From a virus (lineage: Duplodnaviria; Caudoviricetes): a DNA stretch of 64,000 nucleotides. Positions within the stretch are counted from its first letter, which is position 1, and every line of letters starts with the position of its first letter. The stretch covers positions 64,001-128,000 of IMG/VR virus record IMGVR_UViG_3300017700_000931; one strand, given 5' to 3'. Both the position numbers and the translations under genes were made by a program. Positions 1 through 32,224 of the stretch are shown piece by piece. The notes under the pieces were generated by a model. The model worked only from the letters and a program-made list of their open reading frames with translations, was not told the origin of the DNA and made no database searches.

Positions 1-220
1 CTTCATGGGCACCTTTTCCCCATTTATACCATCCAAAAATGTTTGCAATGAAGAAAATTATCTGCAAAATTGCTTGTAAATAAATTTTTTCATTAAAATA
101 AATGACGAAAAAGAGAATTATTGCAACAATTCCGAAAAACCAACACCAAATATTTTGTTTTGCTGTCAAATAAACACAAATCAATGTGAAAATCATTGCA
201 GATATCTCCAAAAATTTCAT
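1..220 (-). CDS. pnuC: PnuC-family vitamin (nicotinamide riboside/thiamine) transporter, 5' part; runs off the window start
   Basis: Not in ORF track. ATG at 220 overlaps the TonB receptor stop. Translation MKFLEISAMIFTLICVYLTAKQNIWCWFFGIVAIILFFVIYFNEKIYLQAILQIIFFIANIFGWYKWG has the PnuC pattern (xNIWxW..G, Q...GWYxW). Confidence 0.85.
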   Translation of the reverse strand, partial: MKFLEISAMIFTLICVYLTAKQNIWCWFFGIVAIILFFVIYFNEKIYLQAILQIIFFIANIFGWYKWGKGAHE

Positions 221-2193
221 TATAAAGACATTTTGATTGTGATATAACCACTTAATGGTGCATTTACATAGAAATACCTAAGATTATCTACAACATACCC
301 ATTAGTATAGTACCGTACACTGGTAATATTGTTAACCCTACCACTAATAGTATAGTCTTTATAGGTATACCCTATACTACCCCCATATATGATAAAAGAG
401 GGGGTGGTGTAATTATTACTAAAATCTAAATACGAACTACTATGGTATTTGGCTGTAAAGGCTAAATTAAATGGTCCATACTTATAATTCAATTCAGCAT
501 TGCTAACTACCGGAGGTGTATACAATGGTTGGAATTTCATTCCATTATCGTTTATTCGATTATAAGATAGGTTCGTATTATTATTCAGGGTCAATCTACC
601 ATTTTCATTATCCAATAAAATAATTGATGTCTCGATTTCAATTCCACTTCTAAATGATTTATCAACATTCATCATTAATGGTAAACCGTTAGAGCCTAAA
701 GCACCTATCAGGGTTATTTCATTTTTGAAATCCATGAAGTATAGATTACTTTTAAATTTGAATCTTTCACTCAAATAACTAAAACCAACCTCATAATCCG
801 TAACCATTTCTGGATTTACTGCTGAATATGAAATTAGATTATCTTCGCCCATGAACATATCATTACGAGTAGGTTCTCGGTGAGATACTCCAACTGAAGC
901 ATATGCTCTAAAATGTCTACAATAATTAAATACTACACCAGCTTTAGGATTAAAGAATAACCAATTTAAGTCCGGCATGACTACATCACCATTATATTCA
1001 AATGTAACATATCTTAATTGGGCATCCCCGAACAATGTGTACTTTCCGATGTCATAACCACCTTTCATGAATCCACTCAATTCATTCTTAAAACCTTTAT
1101 TAGTGTATAACCTATTTTCAACGTGAGGTAAAAGAGCCATACCATGTTCTCTATTGTACATATTACCATGGATTCCAATATTAGCATTTAATTTATCACC
1201 AGAATATTTGTAGTTGGACATCAGGCCATAAAAATTAGAGGCTAATTGGTAATTCAAAACATCGGTACCAGCACCTAATGGATTTAAATCCAAATCCCAC
1301 TCACCATCAAGACGATTATAATAAATTGTTGTATTAATTAATGATTTATTACCCAATCTTTGAGTATGTTGTACTTGAATAAAATTTTGAATGAAATTAT
1401 CATCCTCAACTGGTGTGTTATAATTAGTTCTTGGGTCTGCATTAATATCCAATTCGGAAACTGCATTCCAAGACATTTGATTTAATGACCGACCAGTGAA
1501 TCCTGAAAATTTGATTACACTATTTTTTAAATGGTAACCACCGCTCATGAAGAACGAATAACCCTTACTTCCAGAATTATATTTGTAACCATCAGTATCA
1601 AATGTAGAAAAATTAGTATAGATTGCTAACCCTTTATCATTAATCCCAGTGCTGTGCGAAACATTAAATCGTTTTGTATTAAAAGAGCCATAACCTAATT
1701 CTACTTCGGTGAATTCTTTCACACCACTTGGACTCTCAAAATTGATTGAACCAGCATAAGAGGAAACACCATTCGTAGATGTTCCAACACCACGTTGAAT
1801 TTGCATTGATTGAATATTATTTGAAAATCCGGGGTAGTTAGAGAAATAAACACCTTGGTCTTCTGGTTCATTAAGGGGAACACCATTAAGTGTCATATTA
1901 ATTCTAGTTTGGTCAATCCCTCTAATTCTAAAATAAGTATAACCTTGTGGATGACCACCATCCGTTGATGATGTGATTGAAGGGGTTTTATCCAAAACTT
2001 GTGAAACTTCTTCACCTTGATATCCGGTTTTAATATCATCTCGACCAAGTGTTGTTTCAGTGACTGGAGTTTTGTTATCAGCTCTAACGCCAGTAACACT
2101 TACACCCTCAAGTGTAATCATCTTAGTTGTATCTTCCTGAGCATGAACAAAAACAAGACTCAACAGAGTAATACAAAATAATAATTGTTTCAT
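220..2193 (-). CDS. TonB-dependent outer-membrane receptor (thiamine/vitamin type)
   Basis: Signal peptide, plug motifs (IRGIDQTRINMTLNGVPLN, IQIQRG..S..G...AGSIN), beta-barrel pattern, C-terminal NNIT..RYY..GY; directly upstream of pnuC. Confidence 0.9.
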   Translation of the reverse strand: MKQLLFCITLLSLVFVHAQEDTTKMITLEGVSVTGVRADNKTPVTETTLGRDDIKTGYQGEEVSQVLDKTPSITSSTDGGHPQGYTYFRIRGIDQTRINMTLNGVPLNEPEDQGVYFSNYPGFSNNIQSMQIQRGVGTSTNGVSSYAGSINFESPSGVKEFTEVELGYGSFNTKRFNVSHSTGINDKGLAIYTNFSTFDTDGYKYNSGSKGYSFFMSGGYHLKNSVIKFSGFTGRSLNQMSWNAVSELDINADPRTNYNTPVEDDNFIQNFIQVQHTQRLGNKSLINTTIYYNRLDGEWDLDLNPLGAGTDVLNYQLASNFYGLMSNYKYSGDKLNANIGIHGNMYNREHGMALLPHVENRLYTNKGFKNELSGFMKGGYDIGKYTLFGDAQLRYVTFEYNGDVVMPDLNWLFFNPKAGVVFNYCRHFRAYASVGVSHREPTRNDMFMGEDNLISYSAVNPEMVTDYEVGFSYLSERFKFKSNLYFMDFKNEITLIGALGSNGLPLMMNVDKSFRSGIEIETSIILLDNENGRLTLNNNTNLSYNRINDNGMKFQPLYTPPVVSNAELNYKYGPFNLAFTAKYHSSSYLDFSNNYTTPSFIIYGGSIGYTYKDYTISGRVNNITSVRYYTNGYVVDNLRYFYVNAPLSGYITIKMSL

Positions 2194-2688: not shown

Positions 2689-2770
2689 TTGTTTTGTTTT
2701 TTTAATTAAACTTTATTACTTTTGGGACAATCCGAACCATATTCGTTCATCCATTCTTACTCGAAGAATT

Positions 2771-2797
2771 TTAAGGTGGCTTTACTTTCTATTTCAT
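2771..2797 (-). other. Minigene ATG AAA TAG AAA GTA AAG CCA CCT TAA (MK*KVKPP*)
   Basis: Read directly from sequence, 20 nt downstream of tRNA-Cys with an A/T-rich leader (TATAAATT-ATG); translation is inferred only. Confidence 0.45.
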
Positions 2798-2817
2798 AAT
2801 TTATAACATTTATGTTG

Positions 2818-2888
2818 AGGTAGGGGGCAGAATCGAACTACCATATCACGACTTGCGGTCGTGCACTTAACCAATCAGTCACCCCACC
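2818..2888 (-). tRNA. tRNA-Cys(GCA)
   Basis: Acceptor GGTGGGG/CCCTACC, T-loop GTTCGATT, anticodon arm CACGA-CCGCAAG-TCGTG, discriminator U73 (Cys identity); CCA not encoded. Confidence 0.85.
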
Positions 2889-2893
2889 TTTTA

Positions 2894-3154
2894 TTACCAA
2901 ATATTGGCTATAATTTCAGTATTTATTATTTCAATTTTTAATTTGGCTCTAAATTTAATACTACCCTTGGTGTGTGGATTTTCTGGTGTTTCTTTAGTAG
3001 AGAATCCAACTCCGGGAGACACATCAATATGATTAACATAATGCGTCAGACCCATATGTTTAATCACCCACATTGGTATCGTATTATCTTCGAGATTTTT
3101 CTTATTAAAGTGAAAAATTATTTCTCGTCTTTTTGTGTCATCAATGATTAACAT
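2894..3154 (-). CDS. Hypothetical protein
   Basis: 86-aa ORF whose start overlaps the Pth2-like stop (coupled). Confidence 0.7.
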   Translation of the reverse strand: MLIIDDTKRREIIFHFNKKNLEDNTIPMWVIKHMGLTHYVNHIDVSPGVGFSTKETPENPHTKGSIKFRAKLKIEIINTEIIANIW

Positions 3155-3501
3155 GATAATACCCCTTTCCCCATTAATGGTAATGAACTAGTTAATTTAC
3201 GACTAGCCTCAGATGGGGCCAATGCAATTGCTGTTAATTCATTATTGATATCCGGTTCCCTAAATGGTGTTATCTTAATATAACGTTCAGCTGCTTTTAG
3301 AATGAATTGTTTTAACTCATCTTCATTAGCTACGGTTAGGAAAATTAAATAATTGGAATTTGTGTGCCAGTCTTTGGCCTCCGTTGGATGTCCATGTTGG
3401 AAATCGATTGCAGCATGAGCTGCTTGTACTGCTTGATAAGCAAGTGGTAAATCACGTCTAGTGATGACAATTAATTTGTTATTTTCAATCTAATTTTTCA
3501 T
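3148..3501 (-). CDS. Peptidyl-tRNA hydrolase PTH2-family protein with an in-frame TAG at codon 4
   Basis: Not in ORF track. MKN*IENNKLIVITRRDLPLAYQAVQAAHAAIDF...WHTNSNYLIFLTVANEDEL...FREPDINNELTAIALAP fits the PTH2 pattern (K.V.V.R.DL, Q.AHA, V..E.EL, T.LA..P). TAG at 3490-3492. Confidence 0.82.
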
Positions 3502-3522
3502 ACTTCTACTTTTTATTTTTAG

Positions 3523-3588
3523 TGCTCTTGGAGAGAATCGAACTCTCTGACACGGGTTTTAGAGGCCACCGTCACATCCTACAAGAAC
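3523..3588 (-). tRNA. Non-canonical 66-nt tRNA-like RNA with a putative CUA (amber) anticodon
   Basis: Acceptor GTTCTTG/CAAGAGC, perfect T arm GAGAG-TTCGATT-CTCTC, loop CTCTAAA; D arm reduced or absent and anticodon stem bulged. Confidence 0.65.
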
Positions 3589-3597
3589 AAATATGTT

Positions 3598-3720
3598 AGA
3601 CCTCTCACAATCCTTTACTCTTGGGTCTCAGGTCTTGCGGACCTGTGAGTTTATTTCTTTCGAAACAAAACGGCTACTGGGACAGGAATTTGGCATCACA
3701 GTAACTTGTACCTCTCTCAA
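3598..3720 (-). ncRNA. Structured leader RNA of the tRNA(CUA)-pth2 operon
   Basis: Follows promoter at 3729. Stems GTTACTG/CAGTAGC, a GAAA-tetraloop hairpin (3649-3671), CAGGTC-CGCAA-GACCTG, and CTCACA/TGTGAG crossing AGACC/GGTCT. Confidence 0.45.
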
Positions 3721-3776
3721 ACACATTACAAAGATAAGAACTTTATTTGAATTGTCCAAACATTTTTGCAATTATT

Positions 3777-4400
3777 TTAAAAAAAAGATAAAACTTTTTC
3801 TTGAGTCGCAATATCTACACTATCTAACATGTCTTCAATTTTATGTTTGACTGCCGGATTATTCTTTTTATAAATTGTTTCGTCTTTAATGTCTACCATC
3901 CATTTAACCCCATTGATTATTATGATTGGTTCATCTTTTACATTATGTGTTCTAGTTTTAGCTAATTGCTCAGCAAATTTATCAATATTTTTAATGGATA
4001 AATCAACATTTAACCTTTTTGCATTATACTCTGGGTTTTTGGTTTGATAATCCATAGCTAACATGAATGTATCGATTTTATTATCCCTAACAATTACCCA
4101 AAATTGATTACCAATAGAACCCTCAATTTTATAATATGGGTTACCCCTGAAAAGTTCAAAATATTGTGATTTGGGATTGGCTTTGAATTCACCTAAAAAT
4201 ATCACATATGATTTATTCTTGGGAAAATCAATATTTTCAATTTTTTTTAAGGTTGAAAAAATGGAACCCTTAATAGTATTGGGTAAGTCTTCGTCTGACA
4301 TCTTAGATATCCTATCCCCAACCCTATCAAGGGTATGAGCATCAACATCTGCTTCCGGCAACAAACTTTCTCTTAATATTTTTCTAATAAACCATTTCAT
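3777..4400 (-). CDS. Hypothetical late protein (N-terminal ILRESL motif)
   Basis: ORF track 3777-4418; ATG 4400 preferred because it follows the TATTTAT motif at 4406-4412. Confidence 0.75.
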   Translation of the reverse strand: MKWFIRKILRESLLPEADVDAHTLDRVGDRISKMSDEDLPNTIKGSIFSTLKKIENIDFPKNKSYVIFLGEFKANPKSQYFELFRGNPYYKIEGSIGNQFWVIVRDNKIDTFMLAMDYQTKNPEYNAKRLNVDLSIKNIDKFAEQLAKTRTHNVKDEPIIIINGVKWMVDIKDETIYKKNNPAVKHKIEDMLDSVDIATQEKVLSFF

Positions 4401-5054: not shown

Positions 5055-5733
5055 TTATTTTAAAAGCTGAATTTTTCCTCTTAGGATATCTTTCAATTTG
5101 GCAGTTTTATTAGTAATATGGTCAACTACGATATCATCCTTTACACGATATGTTCTACGTTTATCACCACGATTACCAACCCCAATCTGATTTCTACGTT
5201 CTTTAACCTCTTCTTGGTCATGTCCGGTTTTATAAAACGTATTAACACGTAGTGTTATTTCCTTAAAGGCTGCTTCTTTATTTTTATGTTGGTCTCGGCC
5301 ATCACGAACCACTCTGATACCTGTTGCATTATGTGTCATGATAACACACGAATCAGTAGTATTTTTATGTTGACCGCCACTTCCAGTTCCTCTAGTAAAT
5401 TCAATACGGACTTCATCGTGTCTGATTTCGACATCCTTATATTGTGGTTTATCTAAAATTGCTACTGTGATTGATGAAGTTTGAATACGACCCTTCTTTT
5501 CTGTTGGAGGGATACGTTGCCACCTATGGTTGCCTACTTCATTGTTAAATATTTTTTTTACACCAGACCCGCTAAAGGCATAGACAGACAAATCCTTCTC
5601 TGTCTTCAACTAACATTCAGTTAATGTTGTTAATCTTCGCTGTTTTGATGTAGATATCTCTCATATCTCCCACCAATAACTTAGCATCTTTGCCACCTTC
5701 GGCATCTCTGATTTCTAAATAAATCGTTTCCAT
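5055..5733 (-). CDS. prfA-like: RF1-like class I peptide release factor lacking domain 1; needs TGA readthrough (5617-5619) and a +1 frameshift at CTT TAG C (5577-5571); about 225 aa
   Basis: Frame 1 gives LEIRDAEGGKDAKLLVGDMRDIY (cf. RF1 LEVRAGTGGDEAALFAGDL). The +1 frame gives SGSGV...EVGNHRWQRIPPTEKKGRIQTSSITVA (PxT motif) and TGSGGQHKN (GGQ). Confidence 0.88.
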
Positions 5734-8351: not shown

Positions 8352-8466
8352 CTAGCAAAGATATGGGTTTTTTTATTAAAAACCAAATTTATCTGACTTT
8401 ACTATTTATTTTGGTTTGAAATGATATTTATTTAATAGATAACATATTACTAAAACTATAGAAATC

Positions 8467-8932: not shown

Positions 8933-9054
8933 CCTTAATTTGTTTAAAGATAAATACTCTGGAAAACAAAAAAAGCCCACCGAGTGTGAGCTTTTATGTC
9001 CTAGTTAAAGGTCCAATTTCTGACTTAGCGAATTTAAGCCAGAAGCAGTTTGCG

Positions 9055-9434
9055 TGGAGCTGGAGGGAGTCGAACCCTCGTCCTAATCTATTCTTCAATC
9101 ATTTTCTACGTGCTTAGTTCATTTTTTCTTTTCGAACAAAATATCAAATTTATTTACAACCCCATTTGCAAAGTTGCCCAGCCTTTTTATTTACATCACA
9201 GGTTAGGTCCTAGTGATGGGTTTCGTGAGTTTCCTCAGTTTTCCTATTGCATCAATTAGGCTGCAACAGCCTCTCCAGCAACAACTTCTACAGAAGCGTT
9301 AGCAAGGAAGTTTTCGGAAATATTGAAAATATTGCCATTTGAACTTTTGTAAAATATTGTTTTAACTGCTTATTCACATCGCAGTGCATGCTTACAATTT
9401 ACGACCATAGACAGTCAAATCCAAGGTCAGCCCC
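9055..9434 (-). ncRNA. ssrA: tmRNA
   Basis: 5' GGGGCTGACCTTGGATTTGAC and 3' GGGTTCGACTCCCTCCAGCTCCA form an Ala acceptor with G3-U70. Tag ORF 9336-9256: GNIFNISENFLANASVEVVAGEAVAA*. Confidence 0.95.
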
Positions 9435-16883: not shown

Positions 16884-16941
16884 AATTTTTATTATTAATT
16901 TATACAAATATAAGTATTAATTTTCAATCCACCAAATTTTT

Positions 16942-19124: not shown

Positions 19125-19148
19125 AATCGCAAAGATATGAATAATTAT

Positions 19149-19400
19149 TTAACTTTCCAAATCATATGTGAATTTGGCTCCCTTTTTAATAAATTTAACC
19201 AATATCCCACCTAGTTCTATTTCAAAGACTTCTTGATGCTCAAAACCTACTAAACCACCAGTTAATTTGATGCATAATTCTTCATCCAATTGTCTGTGTC
19301 TAATTTCATCTAATTCATAGATAAGTGTAAGACCAACTTTATCAATTTGGTCGTTATCCACGATATTGCTTATTGTTTGTATGATTTTTTCGTATGTCAT
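19149..19400 (-). CDS. Hypothetical protein
   Basis: 83-aa coupled ORF. Confidence 0.7.
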   Translation of the reverse strand: MTYEKIIQTISNIVDNDQIDKVGLTLIYELDEIRHRQLDEELCIKLTGGLVGFEHQEVFEIELGGILVKFIKKGAKFTYDLES

Positions 19401-23581: not shown

Positions 23582-23654
23582 AATAACATTTTATTAATAA
23601 ATAGTTTGGTGGATTGGAAAATTCTACTTATCTTTGTGACAAGCATCTAACATT

Positions 23655-31307: not shown

Positions 31308-31329
31308 AAAAAGGGCTTAAGCCCTTTTT
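31308..31329. terminator. Terminator hairpin
   Basis: AAAAAGGGCTTAAGCCCTTTTT palindrome. Confidence 0.7.
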
Positions 31330-32224
31330 ATTCATTCATTAATTCATAAAGATTATGAACATTATGTCTGAGTTTTCTGATAGCCTTTTCTTTAATTTGA
31401 CGAATTCTTTCTTTAGTTAAATCATATCTATCACCAATAGCTTCTAGGGTCATTGGCTCACAATCCGTATTTAATCCAAAATAACATTCAATGATACTTC
31501 TTTCTCTTTCATCAAGAATATCAAGTGTTTTATACAATTCATTCTTAACCCTATCATTATCGGTATCAAAAATACTAATGTCTTCCTGTGTTTCATCTGG
31601 AATTACTTCCAATAATTCATCACCATCTTCATTTATTTTTTGATTCAAAGAACCACATGATGGAATATTAGTTACCTCTTCGAAAGATTCTTGTTCACCA
31701 TTTCTAGTTAAAACTTCGTCACCATCGATTGGGGTTCTACCGTTTTCGGTTTCAAATCTTTCGATTTGTTTTCTAATTTTATAAAGTTTGTTGATTACAT
31801 TAGCCGGAAGTCTAATTGACCTAGAATGGTCATTTAAACTTTGCATAATTGATTGTTTAATCCAATAAACAGCGTAAGAAATAAATCGAAACCCTCTTGT
31901 GTGGTCAAATCTCATTGCGGCTTTAATTAAGCCGTAATTACCTTCACTAATCAAGTCAGCCAGTGTTAATCCCTGACCTTGATATTCTTTTGCTATTGAA
32001 ATAACAAATTTTAAATTAGCCATGACTAATTCGTCAATAGCTTTTTCATCACCATTTTGAATTCTTATGGCTAATTCGATTTCCTTTTCAGGAGTAAGGA
32101 TTTCGCTGGTTCTAATTTCCTTAAAATATTTGGTTATGCTATCGTCTTCATTTGGACTGATATATTTTTTGTTCATTGGTTTTTCTTCTTTTCTACTATC
32201 GGTTATTTTAGTTCGAGTGAACAT
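31328..32224 (-). CDS. RpoD/SigA-type sigma-70 factor
   Basis: Region 1.2 YFKEI, region 2 ANLKFVISIAKEYQGQGL..DLISEGN.GL..A..RFD..RGFRFISYAVYWI, region 4 TLEAIG..LTKERIRQI. Confidence 0.93.
   Translation of the reverse strand: MFTRTKITDSRKEEKPMNKKYISPNEDDSITKYFKEIRTSEILTPEKEIELAIRIQNGDEKAIDELVMANLKFVISIAKEYQGQGLTLADLISEGNYGLIKAAMRFDHTRGFRFISYAVYWIKQSIMQSLNDHSRSIRLPANVINKLYKIRKQIERFETENGRTPIDGDEVLTRNGEQESFEEVTNIPSCGSLNQKINEDGDELLEVIPDETQEDISIFDTDNDRVKNELYKTLDILDERERSIIECYFGLNTDCEPMTLEAIGDRYDLTKERIRQIKEKAIRKLRHNVHNLYELMNE

Follow-up and report, generated by a model that had tools for sequence, protein, structure and literature searches.

A phage gene for a protein with the fold of peptidyl-tRNA hydrolase 2 (PTH2) begins with a few codons and an in-frame TAG, after which the whole conserved domain follows, and nearly all homologues in one large clade share this arrangement. 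We consider it probable that synthesis of the protein is gated by a phage suppressor tRNA with anticodon CUA, which competes with RF1 for the early UAG. The gene lies in a stretch of 64,000 nucleotides, called the window below, that comprises bases 64001-128000 of a genome of 362.5 kb with 32.7% G+C. This genome has many phage-like features and 57 tRNA genes called by ARAGORN; its nearest relatives are the uncultured huge phages LR756500-504 and LR745206 together with Tenacibaculum phage pT24. The features discussed are collected in Table 1.

Read on the minus strand from position 3501, the gene starts ATG AAA AAT TAG ATT GAA AAT AAC AAA TTA... The ATG occupies 3501-3499, the TAG 3492-3490 and the subsequent ATT 3489-3487; sense codons continue from 3489 to 3151 and end at a TAA (3150-3148). 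The observation of an early in-frame TAG in this gene is thereby confirmed, and the original prediction was right in placing the TAG at codon 4 and a tRNA-like element 21 nt upstream of the ATG. The frame of 114 codons that it described is indeed intact and open, its sense codons numbering 113 and the figure of 114 including the stop. The ORF listing holds no ATG, GTG or TTG ORF of at least 40 aa ending at 3148, and the first canonical in-frame start downstream of the TAG is codon 90 of the PTH2 frame. No slippery CUU-stop-C arrangement is present at the TAG, across which the frame is continuous. The start of the next gene, an 86-aa ORF, lies inside ...TC ATG T TAA and overlaps the PTH2 gene by 7 nt, and the two are probably translationally coupled. 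This ORF directly follows PTH2 in 33 loci and is itself followed by tRNA-Cys in many relatives. It has no Pfam or PHROG match; its structure model is confident and all-beta (pLDDT 89), with no PDB match below E 0.25 and with unnamed clusters as the only AFDB matches.

Table 1. Features of the PTH2 unit and other features of the window (positions count from the first base of the window).
Feature	Position	Strand	Remarks
TonB-dependent receptor gene	220-2193	-	Plug + beta-barrel; same position after the cassette in L191
tRNA-Cys(GCA)	2817-2888	-	ARAGORN and Rfam; conserved last member of the unit
86-aa all-beta ORF	2894-3154	-	ATG at 3154 overlaps the PTH2 stop
PTH2-fold (peptidyl-tRNA hydrolase 2-like) coding frame	3148-3489	-	113 codons + TAA; no canonical start
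Mini-ORF ATG AAA AAT TAG	3490-3501	-	Met-Lys-Asn-stop, in frame with the PTH2 frame
tRNA-like gene, 66 nt, without D arm	3523-3588	-	CUCUAAA loop, anticodon CUA
Conserved non-coding leader RNA, about 130 nt	3590-3722	-	between promoter motif and tRNA
Bacteroidota-type promoter motif (TTTG, 20 nt, TAnnTTTG)	3729-3760	-	likely start of the transcription unit
Shortened RF1-type release-factor gene	5055-5733	-	Pfam RF-1 + PCRF; 1.5 kb upstream of PTH2
Phage tmRNA	9052-9434	-	Rfam RF00023, 89.7 bits
Phage sigma-70-family factor	31328-32224	-	regions 1.2, 2 and 4

Residues 5-105 of the PTH2-like protein match Pfam family PF01981 over profile positions 2-114 of 115, with an E-value of 7e-7 and a score of 29.9 bits, above the gathering cut-off of 23. 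A profile of 29 phage homologues (A1) matches archaeal Pth2 2zv3 over the full length (E 9e-10). The AlphaFold2 model (pLDDT 93.7) shows the alpha/beta PTH2 fold, and its top 13 PDB matches in Foldseek all belong to the Pth2/Bit1 family, among them an entry whose function is given as unknown. With archaeal and eukaryotic Pth2 (PF01981; PDB 2zv3, 3erj, 1q7s (Bit1) and 1xty) the phage protein has in common the fold (TM 0.72-0.79), the R-x-D-L and Q..H motifs and a Thr, at 18-26% identity to the solved structures. Eight residues are invariant in the family and all are present in the window: R11, D13, H25, L59, F76, E78, P79 and T86. In Sulfolobus Pth2 the catalytic residues are reportedly the Asp of a D-A-G motif and the Lys of a G-K-G-K loop, according to Fromant et al. 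The phage-borne version appears to differ at both places. In the profile alignment the position of the catalytic Asp of archaeal Pth2 is taken by the invariant Glu78, which is part of F-R-E-P-D, and where archaeal Pth2 has the lysine loop GKGK the phage proteins have a deletion or Gln; R11, D13, H25 and T86 are conserved. Because of the Asp to Glu change and the missing loop, the activity may differ from that of classical Pth2. From the modelled fold the protein is predicted to hydrolyse peptidyl- or aminoacyl-tRNA; the PHROGs label for the family is unknown function or 'hydrolase'.

Homologous loci taken from GenBank phages, IMG/VR and MAG contigs gave 137 distinct domain sequences, and a midpoint-rooted FastTree tree of these falls into two clades (support of the split 99). 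Clade A contains 88 sequences, among them the window, Tenacibaculum phage pT24 and the cluster C mycobacteriophages, and its members are approximately 35-91% identical to the window PTH2. An ATG, zero to six codons and a TAG stand directly before the PTH2 domain in 85 of the 88, which is the outcome of the alignment of phage PTH2 5' ends that had been proposed earlier. The leader is variable, with lengths of 1-7 codons and at least 20 different peptides (MK, MT, MTH, MKN, MKDT and MKKPFYY are examples), whereas the TAG is constant. In mycobacteriophage Catera the start region reads ATG TAG GTG and in Phabba GTG TAG GTG. Clade B comprises 49 sequences, mostly with a plain ATG start and without TAG (38); 9 have a TAG inside the domain and 2 an early one.

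A TAG is also found inside the conserved domain in loci L002, L057, L062, L063, L088 and L093 and in several clade B genes, and the conserved sequence continues past it. Four of the clade A genes (L002, L057, L088 and L093) carry two TAGs. These internal TAGs are explained by readthrough alone. As a control we used the 476 ORFs of the window's own genome: a TAG at most 8 codons upstream of the start, with an ATG at most 8 codons before it, occurs in 2 cases, and for 12.6% the closest in-frame stop on the upstream side is a TAG. Judged from the sequences, the early TAG is a conserved feature of the PTH2 gene and not damage. That the enzyme needs amber readthrough, as the original prediction held, is supported by the conserved early TAG and by the internal ones alike.

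Other genes with an ATG..TAG start were sought in the window, the genome and the flanks of relatives; none was convincing, with a PTH2 fragment in L023 as the sole exception. Here a second ATG ACA CAC TAG start (669-1460) opens a frame that begins PTH2-like and then diverges, and a second tRNA(CUA) (342-414) lies ahead of it. This second tRNA and start look like a duplicated and remodelled copy of the cassette. XacN1, Xoo-sp13 and RAS14 were rejected as examples of the cassette, as the domain is fused into a longer ORF (280 aa in XacN1) without a TAG and without an adjoining tRNA.

The layout could also be read as termination and reinitiation, or as a non-AUG start: the mini-ORF would load ribosomes, these would restart at AUU 3489, and the TAG would never be decoded. 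In line with such a restart, the codon next to the TAG is ATT, ATA, ATC or GTG in 56 of 87 sequences (ATT in 48), and the annotated starts of Catera and Phabba are the GTG right after it. Moreover, Bacteroidota mRNAs are reported to lack Shine-Dalgarno sites, and a leader ORF could aid ribosome loading in this phylum. However, in 31 of the 87 the next codon is GTA, GTT, CTT, GGC, GGT, AGC, ACT, ACG, ACA, AAC, AGA or AAG, none of them start-like, and the TAGs inside the domain could not be bypassed by a restart. Reinitiation would also give no reason for a TAG in nearly all of clade A, TAA being by far the commonest stop, and would leave the linked CUA tRNA without explanation. We therefore regard it as very unlikely; a start at ATT 3489, which the original prediction had itself named among the findings that would refute it, is unlikely as a general mechanism in view of the next codons and the internal TAGs. 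Directly behind the early TAG stands a purine in 86 of 87 cases (A in 64, G in 22). A purine after UAG is said to favour amber suppression in E. coli, as Bossi and also Miller and Albertini are credited with finding in 1983. The purine context, the internal TAGs and the tRNA linkage together favour decoding of the UAG over reinitiation.

ARAGORN finds a tRNA(CUA) within 1.5 kb of PTH2 in 101 of the 137 distinct loci, on the PTH2 strand in all but one of those tabulated; these counts are lower bounds, since some contigs are short and some tRNAs odd. The linkage bears out the expectation that phage PTH2 homologues have a CUA tRNA as their neighbour, and this tRNA is the likely decoder, as had been proposed. 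In clade A the tRNA is upstream of PTH2 in 32 cases and downstream in 28. Of the upstream ones, 26 are no more than 120 nt away, in most cases at a distance of 20-60 nt to the ATG. For clade B we counted 28 within 120 nt after the PTH2 stop (4-120 nt). Since this clade keeps the tRNA beside a mostly TAG-free PTH2, the gate is not the sole reason for the linkage. In Catera (L066, 1805-1878) and Phabba (L067, 1665-1735) a tRNA with a UUCUAAC loop and a 4-bp stem is located just downstream of PTH2, which ARAGORN assigns to CUA and GenBank to Arg(tct).

The tRNA of the window is non-canonical. It combines a 7-bp acceptor stem, a canonical T arm and discriminator A with a 7-pair extended helix and an internal loop in place of the D arm of a cloverleaf. 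Its anticodon loop has seven nucleotides (CUCUAAA, with U33, C34-U35-A36 and a purine at 37) and equals that of most canonical relatives. ARAGORN makes no call at 3523-3588 and the Rfam tRNA score is 23.7 bits against a gathering score of 29, both of which are due to the absent D arm. The same 66-nt form occurs in L195, L196 and L199, close relatives found via the protein collection (the PTH2 of L195 is 91% identical). An alignment of the four sequences gives a 19-pair structure, made up of the acceptor stem, the extended anticodon helix and a 5-bp T stem, in which all 76 cells are paired (100%). Five pairs change on both sides, the covariation score is reached in none of 500 shuffles, and slid controls pair at no more than 54%. 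This argues that the tRNA-like RNA is under structural selection. Across the four copies U33, CUA and A37/A38 are invariant and position 32 alone varies (C, U or A). Relatives outside this D-arm-less subclade have canonical cloverleaf CUA tRNAs at the same position.

No other CUA tRNA candidate was found in the 362-kb genome by ARAGORN, with and without introns, or by a stem/loop scan. We infer that the tRNA is made and charged and decodes the UAG at codon 4, and we know of no D-arm-less elongator tRNA shown to work on bacterial ribosomes. Similarity to the 57 tRNAs of the genome gives no clear identity for the amino acid, the best matches being spread over Arg, Phe, Lys and Met, and none can be assigned from the internal TAGs because the aligned columns are variable polar positions. 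Further non-canonical CUA tRNAs of the window's subclade are seen in L191 (1390-1480), L097 (1340-1440) and L197 (300-400). ARAGORN misses all of these, which show either 6-8 additional nt ahead of the D stem or a D region that is enlarged; D-stem pairs covary between those of L097 and L191. Outside the window, at C1:25456-25530, ARAGORN calls a tRNA whose anticodon it leaves undetermined, giving the two bases '(ga)'.

In many relatives the gene order is an RF-type gene, a 194-aa kinase-like gene, tRNA(CUA), PTH2, the 86-aa ORF and tRNA-Cys. The RF1-type gene of the window has an in-frame TGA that ends the N-terminal part, followed by CTT TAG C, where the +1 frame leads into the ORF bearing GGQ (...CTA TGC CTT TAG C GGG TCT...; the P-x-T-type motif is PPT). 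The RF2 gene prfB is known for autoregulation by means of an early in-frame UGA and a +1 frameshift, and the site in the RF1-type gene reads as an amber version of it. This would mean that the phage uses UAG recognition twice in one island. The PTH2 gene shares with prfB an early in-frame stop that ties expression of a termination or recycling gene to stop recognition. In contrast to prfB, its frame is continuous without a frameshift, the release factor would have a dedicated tRNA to compete with, and the product does not itself read a stop; the RF1-type gene is the closer analogue. In L199 (1172-1411) and L196 (1292-1527) the neighbours of the cassette include a weak match to an Acb2/Tad1-hairpin (anti-defence sponge) and an RNA ligase.

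These parallels bring up a sensor of RF1 that needs no phage tRNA: near-cognate host tRNAs would read the UAG when RF1 is low, and the enzyme would report termination stress, which was the second option of the original prediction. An in-frame stop near the beginning of a translation-factor-type gene is reminiscent of prfB, the CTT TAG C site in the same island suggests that the phage monitors UAG termination, and the tRNA in the window is non-canonical. In addition, 26 of the 87 early-TAG loci have no CUA tRNA found within 1.5 kb, some of them with short flanks or odd tRNAs. Nonetheless, we think such a sensor unlikely. A CUA tRNA on the same strand adjoins the gene in most loci, often a few tens of nucleotides upstream, and that of the window is structurally conserved. 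Furthermore, near-cognate readthrough would yield almost no product from the genes with two TAGs. That a dedicated tRNA is encoded alongside speaks more for a gate dependent on this tRNA than for a sensor of stress.

The use of TAG elsewhere in the genome is that of a normal stop. A greedy ORF set under code 11 gives a coding fraction of 87%, and the 476 ORFs end in TAA (373), TGA (61) or TAG (42). Reading through the TAG stops gives short extensions only, and PTH2 alone shows an ATG..TAG layout followed by a long frame without its own start. Two pairs of ORFs in the window could be joined across TAGs, but neither pair yields evidence of readthrough. In the first, whose downstream member is the sigma-70 factor, no Pfam domain crosses the TAGs, each lying wholly to one side; the other pair is without a Pfam match. 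A UVR motif is present in the ORF upstream of the sigma-70 factor, in the same frame. In the flanks of relatives from both clades, ORFs are lengthened less by TAG as a sense codon than by TGA, taken as the control. Genome-wide reassignment of TAG (code 15) was rejected on the coding density under code 11, the 42 TAG stops and the lack of a Pfam domain across the TAGs of either ORF pair: the phage uses the standard code. Strong suppression would be costly to a phage with this many TAG stops of its own, and it has to be weak or limited to a certain period.

Decay of the gene, a faulty assembly or recoding of the whole genome might be suspected as well, given that public gene calls truncate PTH2 genes or translate them with TAG as Gln and that recoded Lak megaphages carry clade B homologues. 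We consider all of this extremely unlikely: the frame is intact with every invariant residue kept, the TAG is seen again in separate assemblies made from many samples, and it is a working stop in the genome, where no other gene needs it as sense. The habit of pipelines to truncate these genes or to switch to TAG as Gln has left the family under-reported. In pT24 (L006, LC168164), for instance, the PTH2 domain is part of a 314-codon frame at 1456-2409 that opens with ATG AAA TAG ATA; the annotated CDS BPT24_235 starts at 1591, inside this frame, and so leaves the domain out.

The motif at 3729-3760, which we take to be a promoter on the strength of the published Bacteroides consensus, is conserved in L097 and L195. 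The window contains 12 copies of TTTG-N18-21-TAnnTTTG against 3.6 expected, a number reached in none of 100 shuffles. Sites include 2212-2243, 8356-8387, 16905-16936, 19130-19161 and 23605-23636, and many copies have in common TTTGG...TATCTTTG. In view of this shared sequence, the phage probably uses host Bacteroidota-type promoters. No terminator-like site was found on the minus strand from the promoter motif down to tRNA-Cys. The leader RNA is, by eye, about 85-90% identical to those of L097 and L195 (82% over the whole A2 alignment), whose PTH2 proteins are 51% and 91% identical to that of the window, respectively. Its hairpin CAGGTC-CGCAA-GACCTG shows a compensatory change from C-G to U-A in L097. 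The leader is absent from L191, and Rfam gives no ribozyme or other family in 2700-3900.

Our preferred reading of the unit, the amber gate, can then be pictured as follows. Transcription from 3760-3729 would produce a single transcript with the leader, the 66-nt tRNA(CUA), the PTH2-like gene, the 86-aa gene and tRNA-Cys. Ribosomes would start at AUG 3501 and meet the UAG after Met-Lys-Asn. Where RF1 wins, this tripeptide alone would be released; where tRNA(CUA) decodes the UAG, the 113-codon PTH2-fold protein would be made and, through coupling, the 86-aa protein. As RF1 and tRNA(CUA) compete at the UAG, PTH2 output would track how much charged suppressor tRNA there is relative to RF1 activity. 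We can guess at the use of such a gate: an enzyme that recycles abortive translation products may be supplied in proportion to suppressor activity, and may clear abortive peptidyl-tRNAs to a matching extent.

A somewhat different role is conceivable, albeit doubtful. The PTH2-like enzyme could be the dedicated partner of the suppressor tRNA, deacylating or recycling it or its abortive products, and would form a negative-feedback homeostat together with the UAG. More charged suppressor would give more enzyme, and more enzyme less charged suppressor. On this feedback view the pairing of enzyme and tRNA would be older than the gate, since in clade B the tRNA lies shortly downstream of mostly TAG-free PTH2 genes. 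If true, the homeostat would keep amber suppression low enough to be tolerated by a phage with the standard code.

The mini-ORF has a further parallel in the bar minigenes of lambda. As known from work with pth(ts), these ORFs of 2-3 codons provoke peptidyl-tRNA drop-off. An ORF of 1-7 codons plus stop in the setting of a peptidyl-tRNA hydrolase is common to both systems, but in the present case the mini-ORF is in frame and continuous with the coding frame of the enzyme. That the Met-Lys-Asn mini-ORF might likewise promote drop-off and that the arrangement might sense termination or recycling stress, as the original prediction held, is neither favoured nor contradicted by the sequences. Phages with recoded stop codons are said to have been described by Ivanova in 2014. 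Code 15 phages (crAss-like, Lak and others) read TAG as Gln with a phage suppressor tRNA (Borges et al., bioRxiv 10.1101/2021.08.26.457843; Peters 2022, PMC9523058), and their authors proposed that in-frame TAG serves the timing of expression (bioRxiv 10.1101/2021.08.26.457843; PMC9523058). A phage tRNA(CUA) for in-frame TAG and a host with the standard code are features that the present phage shares with them. Unlike in those phages, TAG stays a stop here, with one small gene that has an in-frame TAG and the RF1-type frameshift site; the TAG is at codons 2-8, and the target is tRNA-hydrolase-like and not a lysis or structural gene. Peptidyl-tRNA hydrolase is not mentioned in bioRxiv 10.1101/2021.08.26.457843.

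CUA tRNAs in standard-code phages are also known as 'orphan' amber suppressors; for those of XacN1, its authors could not find targets by reading past ORF ends (PMC5852040). In our case a target is apparent because the TAG is at the start of the gene and not at its end. Full-text searches of the literature turned up no account of an amber-gated Pth2 gene in phages, nor of this cassette.

Summarizing, the cassette would represent a conserved natural target for the suppressor tRNAs of standard-code phages, and a compact translational switch in which one tRNA and one stop codon control one tRNA-recycling enzyme. Its cultured carriers, Tenacibaculum phage pT24 and the cluster C mycobacteriophages, make the gate directly testable. 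More generally, it would mean that in-frame stops can serve individual genes while the genome as a whole keeps its code, which may be a first or last step toward code 15.
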